Origin: Alistipes sp.
GTDB lineage: Bacteria; Bacteroidota; Bacteroidia; Bacteroidales; Rikenellaceae
Direction of reading: 5' to 3'
Assembly: GCA_045648965.1 (NCBI GenBank)
Contig: JAZRPA010000026.1
Coordinates: forward strand, 9,451 to 73,450
DNA length: 64,000 nucleotides
A program made the position numbers and the translations under genes. Position 1 is the stretch's first letter; every line of letters starts with the position of its first letter. Shown here in pieces: positions 52,302 through 59,038 of the stretch. The notes beneath the pieces were generated by a model, which saw only the letters and a program-made list of their open reading frames with translations, was not told the DNA's origin and did no database searches.

Positions 52302-53504
52302 CTATTTTAGTTTGTGAGCTTTTGCCAATCCGCCTTGCGAAGTTTCGCGGTATAAACTTGGCAAATTATGCCCCGTCTCGTGCATCACCTCCACGACCTT
52401 GTCGAAGGATACGAGGTGTGAGCCGTCCGACAAAATAGCGTATGTGTTGGCGTCGAACGCACGAGCCGCAGCCACCGCATTTCGCTCGATACAAGGCACC
52501 TGAACAAGTCCGCAAACAGGGTCGCAAGTGAGACCCAAGTGGTGTTCCAAGCCCATCTCGGCAGCATACTCAATCTGCGCTGGCGTACCGCCAAAGAGCT
52601 GACAAGCTGCAGCTGCCGCCATAGCGCAAGCTACACCAATCTCGCCCTGACAGCCAACCTCAGCGCCCGAAATAGACGAGTTTGTCTTAACGATATTTCC
52701 GAAAAGTCCCGCCGTAGCCAATGCACGCAACACTCTGATACGCAAGAACTCACGCGAAGTGACCATATGATAAAGCACGCCCGGCAACACACCGCACGAG
52801 CCGCAGGTTGGCGCCGTAACTACAGTACCACCCGAAGCGTTCTCCTCAGCCGCAGCCAAGGCGTAGGCGTATATGCGCGCACGCGAGCTGAGTGAGCCTG
52901 CATAGCCCTTGCTCTTGACAAAATAGGTACTCGCCTTGCGTGCTACCTTCAGACCACCCGGCAATACGCCGTCGTTGTTAAGGCCGCGCTCGACGGTTTC
53001 GCACATAACAGTCCAGATATGGTCGAGAAAATCCCAAATCTCCTTACCCTCGCACTCCTCAACGTACTCCCAATAGGTTTTACCCTCCTCGTAGCACCAC
53101 TCCTTAATCTGCTGAATGGTAGTGAGCGGATAGATACTCTTTGGAGCTGCGGCAACCGTATCTTCGTTGGCCAAAGCACCACCACCAACGCTGAAAATAG
53201 TCCAGTTATCGAATACCTCGCCACCCTTCAGCGCCTCGAACAACATTCCGTTCGGGTGGAAATCGAGCACAACATCGGCCTTCCATACGATTTCGGTCGG
53301 AGCCAACGGCTCGAGAATCGAGAGGATAGCCGAGTGTGTAAGGTGGCCCTTACCAGTAGCTGCCAACGAGCCGTAGAGGGTTACTCGGTAGGCCTCGGCA
53401 CCTGCGGTGCGCTCGGCGAACTGCTCGGCAGCTCGCTTTGGACCCATGGTGTGACTACTCGATGGGCCACTACCAACTTTATATAATTCGCGTAACGATT
53501 CCAT
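52302..53504 (-). CDS. sdaA: L-serine dehydratase (single-chain Fe-S type)
   Basis: GPSSSHTMGP, LYGSLAATGKGH, PTCGSCG, GCQGE, GLTCDPV. Confidence 0.95.
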   Translation of the reverse strand: MESLRELYKVGSGPSSSHTMGPKRAAEQFAERTAGAEAYRVTLYGSLAATGKGHLTHSAILSILEPLAPTEIVWKADVVLDFHPNGMLFEALKGGEVFDNWTIFSVGGGALANEDTVAAAPKSIYPLTTIQQIKEWCYEEGKTYWEYVEECEGKEIWDFLDHIWTVMCETVERGLNNDGVLPGGLKVARKASTYFVKSKGYAGSLSSRARIYAYALAAAEENASGGTVVTAPTCGSCGVLPGVLYHMVTSREFLRIRVLRALATAGLFGNIVKTNSSISGAEVGCQGEIGVACAMAAAAACQLFGGTPAQIEYAAEMGLEHHLGLTCDPVCGLVQVPCIERNAVAAARAFDANTYAILSDGSHLVSFDKVVEVMHETGHNLPSLYRETSQGGLAKAHKLK

Positions 53505-53647
53505 ACGTAGTTAATTTTATTGCGCAAAGATAAATAAATTACCCTATCCACACAAACCAAACGCCACAATAAAGAGCCCAAGAGTGATATTTTAAGGGTA
53601 AAAACAAAAAAAAGTGCAAAAGTTTTTGGTGTAAAGAAAATTTCCAC

Positions 53648-53662
53648 TATCTTTGCACTCGC
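53648..53662 (+). promoter_or_regulatory. tRNA-Met promoter
   Basis: TATCTTTG followed by CACTCGC, 21 nt before the tRNA. Confidence 0.75.
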
Positions 53663-53676
53663 TTTCGAGCAATAAT

Positions 53677-53750
53677 GGCGGGATAGCTCAGCTGGTTAGA
53701 GCGCATGATTCATAATCATGAGGTCGAGAGTTCAAGTCTCTCTCCCGCTA
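53677..53750 (+). tRNA. tRNA-Met (CAT), probably elongator
   Basis: Cloverleaf GGCGGGA...TCCCGCT-A; anticodon loop TT-CAT-AA; T-loop GTTCAAGTC; CCA not encoded. An Ile2 assignment cannot be excluded without a model. Confidence 0.9.
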
Positions 53751-53751
53751 C

Positions 53752-54035
53752 AAAAGGAGTGATTTTTCACTCCTTTTTTTTGTAGCGGGGAGAGACCTTG
53801 TGTTACCCACCCCCTAAATCCCCCTCCTGTGAGGGGGACTTATTTTTTTTATAAACTGCTATAAAAAAGATTTAGGAGCGATTTTATCACTCCTATTTTT
53901 TTTGTAGCGGAGAGAGACGAGTGTGTTACCCTCCCCCTAAATCCCCTTGACTTCGTCTTCTTCCTTGCGGCCCGGCAAAGTGTGTAAACCCACTCTGCTC
54001 TCACTCCGCTGCGTCAGTCCCTGTGAGGGGGACTT
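53752..54035 (+). repeat. Tandem duplicated unit: terminator hairpin + antisense tRNA-Met 3' end + REP-like element
   Basis: Unit 1 at 53752-53841; unit 2 at 53873-54035, with a ~71-bp insert in the REP. Confidence 0.8.
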
Positions 54036-54103
54036 TTTGCTTTTAGCCATTGTTTTTTTTGTTTTATAGGGACAATGGAGAGTTTAACGGAAAACGGAAA
54101 ACT

Positions 54104-54137
54104 GAGATTGCCACGTCACTTCGTTCCTCGCAATGAC
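54104..54137 (+). repeat. REP-like palindrome GAGATTGCCACGTCACTTCGTTCCTCGCAATGAC
   Basis: Resembles, from memory, a widespread GAGATTGC...CCTCGCAATGAC REP family; single copy in the window. Confidence 0.65.
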
Positions 54138-54403
54138 GACAAGAGGAGTATTTCACCTTTATGCCCTTAACGCCATTATTACACAACAGATATTTTTCCC
54201 ACGACAGATTCGAACGGGCGCAGCAGGTTTGAGCAGAGCAAGCGGAGAGATATTGGAGCGGAGGCGAACAACGAAGTTGCAGGGGTTGAGATGATAGTTG
54301 AAAAGAAAATTTATTTACTTTTTTAACTATCAGCGCAAGACCGACGATTGCATAGCAATACGCCTAGGCTACAATAGCGCCCGCGCAGATAACTCTGCCA
54401 CAC

Positions 54404-54469
54404 CGCCACCGACTGAACGAATCCTGGTATTACGACAAAAAAAGAGAGACAATTTCTTGTCTCTCTCTG
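54404..54469 (-). repeat. Terminator hairpin plus inverted copy of the tRNA-Pro 3' end and shared motif
   Basis: + strand 54418-54436 CGAATCCTGGTATTACGAC matches the tRNA-Pro 3' end at 17/19; AGAGAGAC/GTCTCTCT hairpin in between. Confidence 0.8.
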
Positions 54470-54544
54470 TCGGGATACCAGGATTCGAACCTGGGACCCT
54501 CTGGTCCCAAACCAGATGCGCTAACCGGACTGCGCTACATCCCG
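54470..54544 (-). tRNA. tRNA-Pro (TGG)
   Basis: CGGGATG...TATCCCG-A; anticodon arm TCTGG-TTTGGGA-CCAGA; CCAGG-TTCGAAT-CCTGG; promoter TACCTTTG at 54562-54569. Confidence 0.95.
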
Positions 54545-54743
54545 TTGTTGTATTGCGAGTGCAAAGGTAAAGCAAATTTTTTAATCTGCAAACTTTTTTC
54601 AAAAATTTTATCATTTTTTTCGCATCACCCCTATTTTATGCTCCATTTTCGACTTTGAGAACGAAAAATATCTGCCTTTTGCGATACAATGATAGAAAAA
54701 TTTGTTATATTTGTATAACCAAACAAAACTAACCGAATTAACT

Positions 54744-54953
54744 ATGGAAGGAAAAGTAAAGTGGTTCGACTCTAAAAAGGGCTACGGATTTATTATCGCC
54801 GAGGACGGCAAAGAGATTTTTGTACACTACACCGGTATCGTCAAGGAGGGCTTCAAGGCCTTGAACGAGGGTCAGCTCGTAACCTACGAGATTGGCAGCG
54901 GCGACAAGGGCGAGCAGGCTGTAAATGTACAGATTGTTCCGAAGGGCGAATAA
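54744..54953 (+). CDS. Cold-shock domain protein
   Basis: GKVKWFDSKKGYGFI, IFVHYTGI; TATATTTG promoter box upstream. Start moved to MEGKVKWF. Confidence 0.95.
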   Translation: MEGKVKWFDSKKGYGFIIAEDGKEIFVHYTGIVKEGFKALNEGQLVTYEIGSGDKGEQAVNVQIVPKGE

Positions 54954-54974
54954 TCTCCAATTTCGAACAAAAAG

Positions 54975-55006
54975 TGATGGGTATCGAAAGCGATACCCAT
55001 CTTCTT
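54975..55006. terminator. Bidirectional terminator between csp and the nucleoside permease
   Basis: GATGGGTATCG-AAAG-CGATACCCATC. Confidence 0.8.
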
Positions 55007-55030
55007 TTATATTATATATATGTATGAAGT

Positions 55031-56485
55031 TTAGTGCTTAACCTCTATCTCCGACTGAGGATTGTGCTTGTACTTGAAGATAAGCGCAAAGAGGATTGTC
55101 ACAACCAACGCATATCCTGCGAAGATCAACCAAGTGTGCGACCAACCTGTCAACATCTCCTGAACTTGTGGTTGCAAAGCCTCTTTCACCTTACCACATG
55201 TTTCAGCTGCAGGTTGAGCCAGATTTACGATATCCGACACGGTATTAGTAACCGTATCAGGAAGCTTCAAGCCCTTCACTTTGTCCAAAACCTCTGTTAT
55301 CGAACCATTATAGAAAGCCTCATCTAATAGAGGTTTGATATTTCCATTAGGTACAAAGCGATTTACCACGGCCTGAGCACCGAGAGTACCGATAGTTGCA
55401 CCAATACCATTGGTCATAATCATAAACAAGCCCTGTGCCGAAGAGCGAATATCGCTCGAGGTCTCCTGGTTTACATAGAGCGAGCCCGAAACGTTGAAGA
55501 AGTCGAATGCTACACCATAGACAATCATCGAGAGGATAAACATCCACACACCTGCACCTGGATTACCCAAGCCGAACAAGCCGAAGCGCAATACCCACGC
55601 AAACATAGCCATCAACATCACATTCTTGATACCGAAGCGCTTCAAGCAGAATGGAATCAAGAGGATACACAAAGTCTCAGATACCTGCGAGAGCGAGATA
55701 AGGATATTTGTATATTCTACGCCGAAGGTACCCTTATACTCAGTAGCAAGGCCGAAATCGCCGATAAATGGATTCGCAAAGCCATTGGTAATCTGCAACG
55801 ACACGCCCAAGAGCATCGAGAAGATAAAGAAGATAGCCATCTTCTTCTGCTTGAAGAGAGCAAATGCCTTCAAACCGAGAGCCTCGCCGAGCGACTTCTT
55901 CTCGCCACCCTTAACGATAGGACACTGCGGAAGTGTGAACGAATAGATACCGAGCATCAAGCCGAGAGCTGCCGACTGGGCAAACTGCAAGTACGACGAC
56001 TCAATATGTGCAAGGCTGCAACCAATCATTGCGCAGATGAAACCTACGGTACCCAACACGCGAATTGGAGGAAAGACCTTCACCGTATCCAAACCAGCGC
56101 GCTCCAAAAGGCTATATGCCACCGAGTTCGACAAAGCGATTGTCGGCATATAGAACGCCACGCTCAAAGTGTAGATCGAGAACAAAGGCATAAATGCCAC
56201 CTCGCCGAGCATACCCGAACCGTAGAATGCGGTCAAGCCTGCGAACACGGCTGCCAAGGTGTGGCAGATACCGAGCATACGCTGCGCCTGGATCCAGCGG
56301 TCGGCAATAATACCAATCACGGCAGGCATAAAGAGTGACACGATACCCTGCACGGCATAGAAGATACCTATCTTCTCGCCCATGCCGATACTACCGAGGT
56401 AACGACCCATTGATGTCAAGTAAGAACCCCAAACAGCATACTGCAGGAAGTTCATCACTATAAGACGAAATCTAATGTTTTTCAT
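55031..56485 (-). CDS. MFS nucleoside:H+ symporter (NupG/XapB-like)
   Basis: MNFLQYAVWGSY, IADRWIQAQR, FPPIRVLGTVGFI, SQVSE, FDFFNVSG. Confidence 0.9.
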   Translation of the reverse strand: MKNIRFRLIVMNFLQYAVWGSYLTSMGRYLGSIGMGEKIGIFYAVQGIVSLFMPAVIGIIADRWIQAQRMLGICHTLAAVFAGLTAFYGSGMLGEVAFMPLFSIYTLSVAFYMPTIALSNSVAYSLLERAGLDTVKVFPPIRVLGTVGFICAMIGCSLAHIESSYLQFAQSAALGLMLGIYSFTLPQCPIVKGGEKKSLGEALGLKAFALFKQKKMAIFFIFSMLLGVSLQITNGFANPFIGDFGLATEYKGTFGVEYTNILISLSQVSETLCILLIPFCLKRFGIKNVMLMAMFAWVLRFGLFGLGNPGAGVWMFILSMIVYGVAFDFFNVSGSLYVNQETSSDIRSSAQGLFMIMTNGIGATIGTLGAQAVVNRFVPNGNIKPLLDEAFYNGSITEVLDKVKGLKLPDTVTNTVSDIVNLAQPAAETCGKVKEALQPQVQEMLTGWSHTWLIFAGYALVVTILFALIFKYKHNPQSEIEVKH

Positions 56486-56627
56486 AGTGTTTTAAGTTAT
56501 ATTTTACCTATCAAATTGCCTTTTCCAGTGCTATAACTGCAATTTTCACAACAAAATTATAAAAATTTTTGAAAAATCTTTGCGAAAATAAAAAATAAAT
56601 AATACTTTTGCACTCGCAATCAAGCAT

Positions 56628-56698
56628 TGGGCTATGGTGTAATGGTAACACTACAGATTCTGGTCCTGTCATTCTAGGTTCGAATCCTGGTAGCCCAA
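56628..56698 (+). tRNA. tRNA-Gln (CTG)
   Basis: TGGGCTA...TAGCCCA-A; anticodon loop TT-CTG-GT; GGTTCGAATCC; promoter TACTTTTG at 56603-56610. Confidence 0.93.
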
Positions 56699-56717
56699 CT
56701 CAAGCGAAATGCAACGA

Positions 56718-56742
56718 CCTCTGCAATGCAGAGGTTTTTTTT
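56718..56742 (+). terminator. Terminator after tRNA-Gln
   Basis: ACCTCTGCA-A-TGCAGAGGT followed by a T run. Confidence 0.75.
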
Positions 56743-56904
56743 ATTTAGAAACAGCCTACACAACAGATATATTTGAAGTGGGCTGTTTTTAAATAAAGGT
56801 GGCTATGCAATAGACATCGTTGCATTTCGCTTGCAAATGTCAGCGGCGCCCTAGGAAAGGCGTTAAGCGGAGCAGACCAACGGTCTGCGTAGTAGCCAAT
56901 CCTG

Positions 56905-56969
56905 AAATAGACGACTCGAAAGTCGTCTATTTTCGTTTTGGGCTACCAGGATTCGTTCAGTCGGTGGCG
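56905..56969 (+). repeat. Hairpin plus perfect antisense copy of the tRNA-Gln 3' end and shared motif
   Basis: AAATAGACGAC/GTCGTCTATTT; TTGGGCTACCAGGATTCG (56938-56955) is the exact reverse complement of 56681-56698. Confidence 0.85.
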
Positions 56970-56997
56970 TCTCGGGTGTTATGGATAGAAATCACTA

Positions 56998-57030
56998 AAA
57001 AAAGACCGCCTTATGAGCGGTCTTTTATAT
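56998..57030 (-). terminator. Terminator after GH97
   Basis: AAAAGACCGC / GCGGTCTTTT. Confidence 0.75.
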
Positions 57031-57046
57031 AATAGGTATCTCTCCC

Positions 57047-59038
57047 CTACTTCTTGGTAATCTTCACGACGTAGCCACCCGCAGGAGCCATATCGGCAAC
57101 GACCTTGCGCGATGCAGGCAAAACTACAACCTCGCGGATATAATCCTCGCCAAGCTTGTCGGCATTCAAACCATCGCGGAACACCTCAGCCACATAGTCG
57201 CCCTCGCCGAGAATCTTCGACAAATCGAGCTCTACCTTGCGAGCCGTCCAATCGTTCACAACGCCCACATACCAGGTATTGCCATTGCGACGAGCCATAG
57301 CCACGTAGTCGCCAAACACGCCGTCGAGCGCAACTGTTTCGTCCCATACGGTTGGGAACTCGGCGATAAACTTGGTGCATTCAGCCTCGCGCTCATACAA
57401 CGATGGCGAGTCGCACAACATCGCAAACGGAGCAAAGTAGATTGCGTACATTGCCAACTGACGGCAACGAGTACCCTGGCTCATAGGGGCGCGGCTACAA
57501 GGGCGGTAGTTCCTCTTATTCGCATTACGCATTGCACCCTGTGTGTAGTCCATCGGACCTGTCACCATACGGAGGTATGGAATCTGCAAGTCGTATTCGA
57601 CCTGGTTATAGCGCTTGTCATCGCTCCATTTTGCATTCTCCAAGCCCATCACAGCCTCGAAGTTTACCACGTTTGGATAGGTGCGATTCATACCCGAAGG
57701 CTTCTGGCAGCCGTGGAAGTCGAGCATAAGTTTGTACTTTGCAGCAATCTCTGCAAGATTATATTGGAAATCGGTCATCTCCACGTCGTCGCGGTCGAGG
57801 AAGTCAACCTTGAAGCCCTTTACACCCATCTCGGCAAAGTGGCGGCAAACCTCCTCCTCTTTGCCTACAACAGCGTTGTAACCTGCCCAGAGGATAATGC
57901 CTACGCCCTGCTTGTTGGCATTGTCGATGATAGCCTTCAAATCAATCTCAGGGATAACCTTTGTCAAATCGTTGGCATACTTTACAGCCCAGCCCTCGTC
58001 GAGAATTACATACTCAATACCATATTTAGCCGCAAAATCGACGTAGTAGTTGTAGGTCTCGGTATTGATACCCGCCTTGAAAGGCACGCCCATCAAACCC
58101 CAATGGTTCCACCACTCCCAAGCAACCTTACCAGGCTTAACCCACGAGGTATCCTCCACGCGCGAAGGCGATGCGAGGCGATAGACCATATCGTTATCCA
58201 AAAGAGTATTCGCATCATCAGTTACGAGCACGATACGCCAAGGAGTATTGGTTGCAGCCTTACACTCGGCGATATATGGTTTGCGGCTCTCGACGACGCC
58301 CTGCAACTTGTTATGTCCGCCCTCAACCACCTTATCGGGCATTGGTGCAAACTCGCCATAGAGAGCCGTTGCGCCCTTGTTGTTCGACACGAACATTCCC
58401 GGATAGTGCTCGACGTCAGCCTCCAAGATGCAAACCTTGTATTTGTCGGCCTCAATCATTACGGGTACGAAAGCCACCTTTCCCACCTCGAACTTCGAGA
58501 GCTCGGTATGGCGATACCACGACTCGAACGAAGTAAAATATTTATCCGTTTTAGAACCAGTCCAATTCGTATATGGAAAGTAGCCCTTATAGTCCTTCGC
58601 AAAGGCAAACTCCACAATCTCGTTTTCGAGTTTGAAATCCTGCTTGAAGTTTGTTGCAAAGCGATAAGCCACACCCTCGTCGTAGGCACGGAACTCCACA
58701 GCATAACGCGCCGAGAATTCAATGCGCATGGCGTTGTAGTTATCCTTGATTGTGTTGCGGAAATAGAACTGCGCAGGAATCTCGGTATTTACGTTTGTGC
58801 GCTTAACCTTCTTTACAGTTATCTTCTCGCCCAGATCAACACCCTCGTAAATCTTCAAGCCAATCTGCGACGGAGCCAAAATCTGCTCACCGTTGCACTT
58901 TACGCTATATGAGAGTTGCGGTTCGGCAGTTACAGTCACCTCCAACTTGCCATTTGGCGAAAGAAGCTTATACTCCTTTGCAGCAAAAGCCTCCACGCAC
59001 AAGAGAAGTGCACAGAGTACAAAAATAATACGTTTCAT
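57047..59038 (-). CDS. GH97 glycoside hydrolase (SusB-like alpha-glucosidase/galactosidase)
   Basis: Signal peptide; LLSPNGKL; WVKPGKVAWEWW; ILDEGW; GVKGFKVDF; RTYPN; GPMDYTQG. Confidence 0.93.
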   Translation of the reverse strand: MKRIIFVLCALLLCVEAFAAKEYKLLSPNGKLEVTVTAEPQLSYSVKCNGEQILAPSQIGLKIYEGVDLGEKITVKKVKRTNVNTEIPAQFYFRNTIKDNYNAMRIEFSARYAVEFRAYDEGVAYRFATNFKQDFKLENEIVEFAFAKDYKGYFPYTNWTGSKTDKYFTSFESWYRHTELSKFEVGKVAFVPVMIEADKYKVCILEADVEHYPGMFVSNNKGATALYGEFAPMPDKVVEGGHNKLQGVVESRKPYIAECKAATNTPWRIVLVTDDANTLLDNDMVYRLASPSRVEDTSWVKPGKVAWEWWNHWGLMGVPFKAGINTETYNYYVDFAAKYGIEYVILDEGWAVKYANDLTKVIPEIDLKAIIDNANKQGVGIILWAGYNAVVGKEEEVCRHFAEMGVKGFKVDFLDRDDVEMTDFQYNLAEIAAKYKLMLDFHGCQKPSGMNRTYPNVVNFEAVMGLENAKWSDDKRYNQVEYDLQIPYLRMVTGPMDYTQGAMRNANKRNYRPCSRAPMSQGTRCRQLAMYAIYFAPFAMLCDSPSLYEREAECTKFIAEFPTVWDETVALDGVFGDYVAMARRNGNTWYVGVVNDWTARKVELDLSKILGEGDYVAEVFRDGLNADKLGEDYIREVVVLPASRKVVADMAPAGGYVVKITKK

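Follow-up and report, generated by a model that had tools for sequence, protein, structure and literature searches.

A structured, multi-copy element behind tRNA and tmRNA genes of genomes labelled Alistipes or Rikenellaceae follows an inverted copy of the neighbouring gene's 3′ end

We analysed a 64,000-nucleotide (nt) stretch of Alistipes sp. DNA (contig JAZRPA010000026.1 of assembly GCA_045648965.1; hereafter the window). In it tRNA-Pro and tRNA-Gln, each read in its own direction, are followed by a hairpin, an antisense copy of the gene's own 3′ end (hereafter the mirror) and a common 14-nt motif, TTCAGTCGGTGGCG. This motif is the start of a structured, multi-copy element of about 205 nt, which we named X and which in related genomes lies behind the genes of 12 tRNA isoacceptors and behind those of transfer-messenger RNA (tmRNA). 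The fold of X is conserved through compensatory changes and points to a structured non-coding RNA on the tRNA strand. The first-pass annotation, made from the letters of the window alone, had described the mirrors and the motif; the conserved RNA-type structure, which it had not seen, changes the picture.

Related loci were numbered (L001, L118 and so on) and compared with the window. Ten of them were collected via contigs encoding the same CspA-like protein. In these the motif recurs behind tRNA-Pro, and a second copy, without a tRNA mirror, stands after ...CTGCTGCGACCG-TT and a short GC hairpin. A scan for TTCAGTCGGTGGCGKYKYGG in one genome per species returned at least 114 stretches. About 50 among the matches listed are in metagenome-assembled genomes (MAGs) labelled Alistipes sp. 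or Rikenellaceae, mostly from ruminant gut. The other matches listed are single and scattered over unrelated, mostly GC-rich genomes and are taken as chance; X itself is confined, among the matches listed, to MAGs labelled Alistipes or Rikenellaceae. The 5′ end of X and its 3′ end (...GCTCTGCTCAAACCTGCTGCGACCG) are conserved, and the variable middle defines several subfamilies. Beyond the 3′ end comes a T-loop-like tail, TTCGAATC(C)..GGTTGTGGGAA. A profile hidden Markov model (HMM) found more than 60 copies in the X-bearing loci, and the copy number is at least six to seven per MAG, counted over loci fetched by an exact 20-mer only. X is non-coding and occurs singly or in short tandem arrays. 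We rejected an assembly artefact, as the same junctions lie inside contigs of many independent assemblies from ENA, NCBI and JGI. As a separate observation, the tails of nine numbered loci (L027, L028, L041, L042, L061, L097, L115, L118 and L123) are followed by short tandem repeats with a period of 9-12 nt and locus-specific sequence (GGCCAGTAA(A/G)G, GGGGATTACT, CTCTCTACT, GAGTTTAGT and CCCTAA-like runs).

The motif had been described as the continuation of tRNA mirrors. It also occurs free of mirrors in tandem units, where a short GC hairpin stands instead. This independence from tRNAs speaks against the element as first conceived, yet it identifies the motif as the end of a unit of about 205 nt.

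The structure of X was assessed with RNAalifold on 24 copies of the largest subfamily. The outermost helix, P0, joins the last bases of the mirror (GGATTCG) to the tail (CGAATCC); it uses the last 5-8 nt of the mirror across the family and 7 nt at the tRNA-Pro locus of the window. Inside P0 follow a 4x4 internal loop (UUCA/CGUU), helices P1 and P2, and a junction with the hairpins TTGC-loop-GCAA, a long one tipped by GAAAATAAATTTTC, and CAATC-TTC-GATTG; one of the hairpins of X has a UUCG-type loop. The consensus holds 45 pairs, 21 of them with changes on both sides. Paired cells amount to 94.3%, versus 85.5% in shuffled alignments, and the covariation score is 0.257, a value attained by 0 of 500 shuffles, which score 0.113; slid controls score 0.03-0.05. 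Between subfamilies P2 is swapped entirely, from GGCAGAG:CTCTGCT to GGGTGAC:GTCACCT, and the pairs of P0 covary with the gene's T-loop type (CGAATC, CGAGTC, CGACCC, CGATTC). Since the fold is kept with compensatory changes among subfamilies that are 45-70% identical, selection has acted on the fold, whether for the host or for the element. Three pairs of the consensus are invariant G-U. On the opposite strand each would be an A-C mismatch, so the constraint acts on the tRNA strand, and the UUCG-type loop likewise suits an RNA of that strand; a functional RNA on the opposite strand is disfavoured by these pairs and by a hairpin that lacks its T-run in that direction.

Two further readings of parts of X were tried. 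A hammerhead-like core in hairpin P5 was rejected, the CUGAUGA-like strings being unconserved and lying inside a covarying stem. The tail as a canonical T-arm is only partly supported: it can form a T-arm-like hairpin with all five pairs in 11 of 45 copies and with at least four of the five in 26 of 45.

X is closely tied to tRNA-like genes. It lies within 700 nt downstream, and on the same strand, of 43 of the 57 tRNA genes in X-bearing loci. With tmRNA genes included we obtained 40 modules of 13 gene types, all of them, among the matches listed, on the strand of the gene. The partners are Leu-taa, Leu-cag, Leu-caa, Ser-gct, Ser-tga, Ser-cga, Val-tac, Gly-ccc, Arg-cct, Glu-ctc, Pro-tgg, Gln-ctg and tmRNA. 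Each module runs from the gene through an intrinsic terminator and an 18-nt antisense copy of positions 56-73 into X, which begins 45-80 nt (mostly 52-56) beyond the gene end. In the loci examined, CCA is not encoded by the tRNA genes. It had been proposed from two loci that a constant element end is joined at the T-loop to an anti-tRNA segment; this junction, at position 56, holds for the 12 isoacceptors and tmRNA over about 50 loci listed.

The mirror follows the neighbouring gene, as had been anticipated. We scored its specificity on 12 bases, excluding the six T-loop bases common to most tRNAs. Averaged over the 40 modules, 9.5/12 agree with the cognate gene, versus 5.7/12 with other gene types; in 33 modules no other gene type scores as well as the cognate one. 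Two T-stem variants of tRNA-Val, CGTCAAC and CCTCAGC, are each matched by their own mirrors, while four acceptor positions of the Val mirrors mismatch identically in both. Perfect mirrors (18/18) were found in 7 of 25 representatives and the remainder have 1-12 mismatches, which cluster at the terminator-proximal, acceptor-derived end; 3 of 73 mismatches are wobble-compatible (G-U). Decayed examples are tmRNA (6/18), Ser-tga in L027 (12/18) and the Val loci, in which a constant TTCG or CTCG replaces the expected GGAG. For comparison, the best 18-nt mirror downstream of unrelated tRNAs reaches 8-10/18 by chance. In JGI metagenomes the exact palindrome of tRNA end and mirror for Pro or Gln was found at six loci, all in one assembly. 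All six run on into X or an internally deleted mini-X, so for this T-arm type no mirror occurs without X.

tRNA-Met differs. The claim that all three tRNAs of the window are mirrored stands, tRNA-Met having a mirror too; by way of correction, this mirror is joined to TGTGTTACCC..., a sequence seen at the tRNA-Met locus only, and not to X or its 14-nt motif. In L001 and L007 the tRNA-Met mirror likewise leads into unrelated sequence, as does the mirror of another tRNA-Met in L123. We also observed, in L012 (6083-6200) and downstream of X in L089, a hairpin, mirror and X behind a fragment, GGACATCATAGGGTAC, in which ARAGORN detects no tRNA gene; these are detached or pseudo-modules.

The mirror forms part of an anatomy common to all copies. 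Every X is bracketed by hairpins, with the 3′ arm of one ahead of it and the 5′ arm of another after its ...GCGACCG-TT end. In tandem arrays one short GC hairpin lies between this end and the next TTCAGTCGG start; these junction hairpins (GACGGC-TTTGCAA-GCCGTC, GGCGAT-TAAA-ATCGTC, GGCGACTTTTC-AG-GAAAAGTCGCC) differ in sequence and keep their pairing. Behind a tRNA the bracket is a palindrome of 70-100 nt, in the order tRNA positions 56-73, trailer, terminator stem, loop, terminator stem, trailer complement and mirror, and T54-T55 of the tRNA occupy the place of the terminal TT of a preceding X. Because a hairpin bracket stands at every X, the mirror is the outer right arm of that bracket. The arm is built from the sequence to its left, which behind a tRNA is the tRNA's own end.

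Several animal-gut metatranscriptome assemblies contain contigs of the X family. One of 197 nt covers X from 7 nt upstream to position 184, and another runs from the 3′ part of tRNA-Pro through the terminator and the mirror to the start of X. These contigs are consistent with transcription of X, read-through included. In the minimum-energy folds of five read-through transcripts, the 3′ 18 nt of the tRNA pair with the mirror in a continuous duplex capped by the terminator, which is predicted to be 18-25 kcal/mol more stable than the cloverleaf plus a separately folded downstream part.

The reading that we favour is that X is a family of tRNA-trailer RNAs. X would ride on tRNA transcription units and be made by terminator read-through or from a weak start in the T-run. 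In the read-through RNA the tRNA 3′ end would be drawn by the mirror into an extended, almost perfect duplex with the terminator hairpin as its cap. This duplex would serve as a processing or insulating stem of the kind cut by RNase III, whose cleavage would part the tRNA from X. X would next take on its folded form, closed by P0, and its body is probably a protein-binding scaffold. The mirror would match the neighbouring gene because it is templated from it: the arms would be anchored by the terminator stem and by the complementarity between T-loop and P0, and template switching, a process that extends and homogenises inverted repeats (PMC8794818, PMC7202029, PMC13100816), would homogenise the palindrome. 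As changes on the tRNA side would be purged by selection, the downstream arm would follow the tRNA. The mirror would later decay from the terminator side, and X bodies would be exchanged or spread between loci up to the junction of mirror and X. Taken jointly, the trailer RNA, the processing duplex, the closure by P0, the scaffold body and the template-switched mirror make up a tentative account, which we put forward as the leading possibility rather than as the probable one.

Several points weigh against this account. X is separated from the tRNA by a good terminator and has no evident Bacteroidota-type promoter ahead of it. The X contigs reach a word depth of 2-50, versus 10^3-10^4 for the neighbouring tRNAs; they are strandless and without true ends, and DNA carry-over could have produced them. 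Were the tRNA 3′ end used in a processing stem, each read-through transcript would cost a tRNA. The mismatches are seldom wobble-compatible. They cluster beside the terminator, on the palindrome's inner side, a placement not foreseen by simple hairpin-templated correction. Arg-acg, Ser-gga and the tRNA-Gln of L001 have neither mirror nor X, and the tRNA-Pro of L007 and its terminator are normal without a mirror. The model leaves unexplained how X first arrives behind a new tRNA-like gene and why its targets are restricted to tRNA and tmRNA.

The mirror could instead be a 5′ guide on the constant scaffold. Its partner, in cis or in trans, would be either the DNA of the gene or the cognate pre-tRNA or tmRNA, in the 3′ half, and the pairing would control maturation or turnover or recruit an effector. 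The modules do combine a locus-specific segment of about 18 nt with a conserved, structured scaffold; this segment follows its target over 13 gene types, and its T-stem part follows the two tRNA-Val variants at three compensated positions (GTTGACG vs GCTGAGG). P0 could toggle the guide between a sequestered and an exposed state, the tail having its alternative T-arm-like hairpin in many copies. Against this stand the mismatches, which are poor in wobble pairs and pile up in the often badly decayed acceptor part; they argue against a finely selected antisense regulator, antisense control of tRNA maturation having been suggested in the first-pass annotation. Moreover, tandem and detached units hold mirrors without an adjacent cognate gene (L098, L012), the 3′ half of a tRNA, once folded, offers antisense pairing a poor target, no effector gene accompanies X in the 8-kb loci, and the tRNA-Pro of L007 manages without a mirror. 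We consider a guide or antisense role quite unlikely. A bolder version, which we regard as a long shot, is that X is a programmable RNA with a neighbour-copied 5′ guide of about 18 nt, a constant scaffold of about 190 nt and an effector encoded elsewhere. Such a guide would read the 3′ ends of tRNA and tmRNA, at the level of either DNA or RNA, and could either home new X units or control tRNA maturation via the common, possibly signal-responsive scaffold.

The exchange of bodies between loci agrees both with our favoured reading and with its main competitor, that X is a mobile DNA element. The bodies of X behind different gene types are highly similar (identity 0.92 for Pro/Val, 0.90 for Leu-taa/Pro, 0.91 for Ser-gct/Val, 0.96 for Val/Leu-cag and 0.92 for tmRNA/Leu-cag). 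L096 (Leu-cag) and L097 (Val) are from one MAG and are mutual closest relatives, and one tRNA type carries different subfamilies in different MAGs. Bodies that are 90-96% identical behind different genes indicate that they have been spread or homogenised up to the junction of mirror and X, the mirror being local. Close relatives of the window vary at both of its X-bearing loci. Behind tRNA-Pro, L008 and L009 have an additional copy, and L007 retains the tRNA and terminator with a quarter of X left and no mirror. tRNA-Gln and its terminator are inverted in L001, without mirror or X, and belong to an intact module in L118. Terminator, mirror and X are duplicated together in tandem in L098, and X alone in L037. 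In L128 (1880-1930), where tRNA-Gln is intact and its mirror perfect, the gene is followed by a mini-X reduced to the closing helices: some 22 nt from the start of X run straight into the tail (TTCAGCTGGTGGCGGTGTGGCC|GCCGTTCGAATTGG).

As a non-autonomous mobile element, X would depend on a remote recombinase or transposase that recognises the T-arm and acceptor end. Insertion itself would create the mirror, for instance through synthesis at the terminator that is primed by fold-back or a hairpin, and decay would follow; the fold would stem from single-stranded intermediates, DNA or RNA, or from an RNA that the element's own spread requires. Much of the distribution suits this. The targets, tRNA and tmRNA, are the exact class used by integrative elements, and the junction is always at T-loop position 55/56. 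The 7 perfect mirrors of 25, with the others decayed, would be events of different ages, and near-identical bodies lie behind different tRNA types as well as within one genome. Relatives vary in occupancy (L001 Gln empty, the window with a stub, L118 full, L007 and L128 deleted, L008 with an extra copy), tandem arrays exist (L037, L098), and each MAG holds at least six to seven copies.

Other observations speak against such an element. Clustering of the open reading frames over the 8-kb loci yielded syntenic housekeeping genes only and no protein family common across tRNA contexts. The co-occurring integrase that had been envisaged was not found: no integrase, transposase or other protein gene recurs next to X, and no tyrosine or serine recombinase lies beside it in the 8-kb loci, although one may be encoded elsewhere in the genome. 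No target-site duplication and no precise empty site was found among the loci compared, and X is absent from viral, phage and plasmid collections. The invariant G-U pairs favour constraint at the RNA level over terminal repeats bound by a transposase. To our knowledge, no transposition chemistry copies at least 18 nt of its target in inverted orientation. Integrases at tRNA genes leave direct, not inverted, repeats. The only direct repeat here is the 7-10-nt T-loop-like start of the tail, beyond which the sequence is the family consensus GGTTGTGGGAA and not the cognate acceptor end. We therefore rejected an attL/attR model, in which X and a replacement tRNA 3′ end would have entered at the T-loop: direct repeats are expected, the gene-proximal copy is inverted and the tail lacks the cognate acceptor end. 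The view of GTAGCCAATCCTG, ahead of the Gln hairpin in the window, as an attR-like sense copy is without support. Mobility of this kind is, on balance, somewhat unlikely.

A reading without host function would make X a selfish or neutral structured repeat that persists in permissive space downstream of tRNA terminators, with the mirror a by-product of template switching in a quasi-palindrome. Mirrors decay, X is truncated or deleted without visible harm to the tRNA (the Gln stub of the window, L007, L128, L085, L030), its occurrence among tRNAs is patchy, and template switching is known to create and extend hairpins. We nevertheless think it unlikely. The fold is conserved with many compensatory changes among the divergent subfamilies, and mutation alone accounts neither for the strict confinement to tRNA-like genes nor for a junction fixed at position 56. 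The idea, raised at first, of decoy or occluded attachment (att) sites that hinder the integration of prophages or integrative and conjugative elements (ICEs) draws on the fact that tRNA and tmRNA 3′ ends are the usual integration sites and that the mirror is an inverted second copy about 35 nt off. It leaves the 205-nt conserved, structured body without a role, and mirrors are often too decayed for recombination sites; we give it hardly any credence.

In the window itself, a hairpin followed by the antisense 3′ end was confirmed at tRNA-Pro (17/19 when taken over 54418-54436) and at tRNA-Gln, as were the 25 bases identical between the two loci (54404-54428 on the minus strand and 56945-56969 on the plus strand); the inverted repeat around the 25-mer reaches 44 nt at 82%. 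A constant element at both loci had been inferred. The tRNA-Pro locus does have a full X, the one full copy in the window (54196-54417, minus strand), and the Gln locus has a stub only. The profile HMM (nhmmer) gave a single match in the window, at 54190-54417 on the minus strand (E=2.5e-42). The exact 14-mer occurs twice in the 64 kb, and with up to two mismatches there are 5 matches versus 0.39 expected (0 of 100 shuffles reach 5). The Gln mirror sits 239 nt from its gene, in agreement with the earlier estimate of about 240 bp. Coordinates are given in Table 1.

Table 1. tRNA genes, terminators, mirrors and parts of X in the window
Feature	Positions	Strand	Basis or remark
tRNA-Met(CAT) gene	53677-53750	+	ARAGORN; Rfam tRNA
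Intrinsic-terminator-like hairpin of tRNA-Met	53752-53777	+	terminator scan
Met mirror of the tRNA-Met 3′ end, with one 1-nt shift, after the terminator at 53752-53777	53783-53800	+	
Tandem second Met-type hairpin and mirror, no tRNA directly upstream	53873-53919	+	
X tail: T-loop-like TTCGAATC then TGTCGTGGGAA; pairs with the mirror end (P0)	54196-54214	-	
X body, TTCAGTCGGTGGCG to CTGCTGCGCCCG: P1, P2, multi-helix junction, three hairpins	54215-54417	-	nhmmer; alignment; single-sequence fold; family consensus structure
14-nt motif TTCAGTCGGTGGCG, first 14 nt of X	54404-54417	-	
Pro mirror, reverse complement of tRNA-Pro 56-73, 16/18	54418-54435	-	
Intrinsic terminator hairpin and T-run of tRNA-Pro, palindrome centre	54441-54468	-	terminator scan; inverted repeat
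tRNA-Pro(TGG) gene	54470-54544	-	ARAGORN; Rfam tRNA, 67 bits
tRNA-Pro positions 56-73, palindrome left arm	54470-54487	-	
tRNA-Gln(CTG) gene	56628-56698	+	ARAGORN; Rfam tRNA
tRNA-Gln terminator in current use	56716-56736	+	terminator scan; resembles terminator of the X-free L001 tRNA-Gln
Second hairpin and T-run, just upstream of the Gln mirror	56905-56932	+	inverted repeat; resembles tRNA-Gln terminator of the intact L118 module
Gln mirror, 18/18 reverse complement of 56681-56698 (tRNA positions 56-73)	56938-56955	+	
Truncated X stub, 23 nt, TCTCGGGTG subfamily, unrelated sequence beyond	56956-56978	+	no nhmmer match

The same box, (C)TTTGCACTCGC, precedes all three tRNA genes (53651-53662; 54555-54567 on the minus strand; 56605-56617) and is probably the Bacteroidota -7 promoter element together with a common start region. 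The Gln locus is rearranged. It has the same flanking genes (nucleoside symporter, GH97) as L001 7300-7720 and the opposite orientation of tRNA-Gln, and the 239 nt at 56699-56937 hold nested inverted repeats (56701-56722/56812-56833 and 56740-56759/56778-56797), possibly the route of the rearrangement.

Further repeats surround the modules of the window. An 18-nt repeat, TACACAACAGATAT(T/A)TTT, is common to the Pro and Gln loci (54180-54197 and 56757-56774); at the Pro locus it is the reverse complement of AAATATCTGTTGTGTA, the stretch directly after the X tail, and this stretch also comes after X in L003, L008 and L025. The palindromic repeat …GCCACGTCACTTCGTTCCTCGCAATGACG… at 54081-54154 reaches a depth of about 500-2400 in metatranscriptome assemblies, where reads break off on both sides, which indicates that the repeat is widespread and common to many organisms; relatives of it were found after X in L096 and L030. 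The trailer of tRNA-Met (53752-54045) consists of the terminator hairpin, the mirror and TGTGTTACCC(A/T)CCCCCTAAATCCCC, in a tandem duplicate about 120 nt apart, the second mirror itself lying at 53905-53919. Each unit closes with a small GC hairpin, CC(C)TGTGAGGGGG, and a T-run (53819-53838 and 54016-54034), and this hairpin also occurs after X in L024. The Met-type unit may be a second kind of tRNA-trailer element. Next to the tRNA-Pro locus, 54588-55005, which covers the 5′ leader and coding region of a cold-shock-domain gene (54744-54953), weakly matches the cspA thermoregulator of Rfam, at 31 bits (E=3e-5) and far under the gathering score of 78.

If X is a functional RNA, it is a new family with at least six to seven copies per genome, coupled, physically and in its evolution, to the tRNA and tmRNA gene set of an abundant and poorly studied group of herbivore-gut Bacteroidota. 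Its module is a natural fusion of a variable, target-matching segment with a constant scaffold, and were the programmable-RNA reading true, it would be a bacterial guide-RNA system that draws its guides from its own insertion site. The module opens questions on the processing of tRNA trailers in Bacteroidota and their use of terminator read-through, on the confinement of an element to tRNA-like genes without a linked integrase, and on the building of palindromes by template switching. It is also a strong marker for the clade and a likely source of assembly breaks and inversions at tRNA loci.

We compared X with known families and systems. Rfam 15 was searched with both strands of window positions 52500-58500 and of five X-bearing loci at E<=1. 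The tRNA genes alone pass the gathering score, and there is no credible match on X; a snoRNA (small nucleolar RNA) model gave 23.6 bits (E=0.46) on the opposite strand, overlapping X in L098. No match on X was obtained with the models of the hammerhead, twister, pistol, hatchet and hepatitis delta virus (HDV)-like ribozymes. Phage, plasmid and viral collections gave one chance match in a coding region and otherwise no X, and a search of the published literature returned no description of such an element. These searches agree with the initial statement that no named system matches. The RNA motif of X appears to be undescribed, and for a flank templated from the neighbour across the tRNA and tmRNA set no described counterpart was found.

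Two further candidates were rejected. A retroelement primer-binding site does not fit, as the mirrors end at the discriminator base, lack the TGG that would match CCA, and belong to a palindrome that continues through the trailer. Nor is the module a split, inverted tRNA pseudogene, since a sense T-loop, and not an antisense 5′ half, follows X.

One of the nearest precedents is RtT of E. coli tyrT (Rfam RF00391), in which repeats of ~170-200 nt lie behind a tRNA gene. Every RtT unit includes a piece that stems from the tRNA 3′ end, and the tRNA transcript gives rise to the free units. X shares the similar unit size, the position behind the tRNA and the segment from the tRNA end, and its units are sometimes in tandem (L037, L098). 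However, the copy is direct in RtT and inverted in X, and RtT is known from one locus and one isotype, whereas X accompanies a dozen isoacceptors and tmRNA. In Rfam neither the window region nor the five loci gave a match to RF00391 or sequence similarity to RtT. Prophages, ICEs and genomic islands reportedly (Williams, in 2002) insert into tRNA and tmRNA genes, with the crossover in the T-loop or at the 3′ end. X resembles these integrative elements in its target class, the 3′ halves of tRNA and tmRNA genes, and in its T-loop junction. They have direct repeats of the tRNA 3′ end and an integrase, whereas the copy in X is inverted and lies outside an intact gene and terminator, and X is 205 nt long, gene-free and without a linked integrase.

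MITEs (miniature inverted-repeat transposable elements) and the ERIC, RUP and Correia repeats are, like X, short, non-coding, multi-copy and lineage-restricted, with ends that pair in a long stem and with frequent co-transcription from adjacent genes. Unlike them, X has invariant G-U pairs in its closing stem and a multi-helix junction as its interior in place of a simple foldback; it is confined to tRNA-like genes, one of its flanks is templated from the neighbour, and no target-site duplication was seen. With the Cas9 single-guide RNA and the omega-RNA of IscB and IsrB (HEARO), X shares a variable, target-complementary segment of ~18 nt on a scaffold of ~200 nt; the IscB guide is DNA flanking the element end, as with X. 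Unlike these guide RNAs, X has its target 35 nt away in cis, and its guide is often decayed. The HEARO and trans-activating CRISPR RNA (tracrRNA) models of Rfam gave no match, and no nuclease gene lies nearby in the 8-kb loci.

The RNase III stems of rRNA and tRNA operons and the small RNAs of 3′ external transcribed spacers (3′ETS), such as 3′ETS-leuZ, resemble X as duplexes of flanking sequence and as trailer-derived RNAs, respectively; the predicted duplex of X differs from such stems in using the mature tRNA 3′ end rather than flanking spacer. Template switching, which can copy one arm of a hairpin onto the other, would yield a mirror that follows the tRNA, but as a mutational process it leaves X itself and the restriction to tRNA genes unexplained. 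We place X among the tRNA-linked or structured intergenic repeats.

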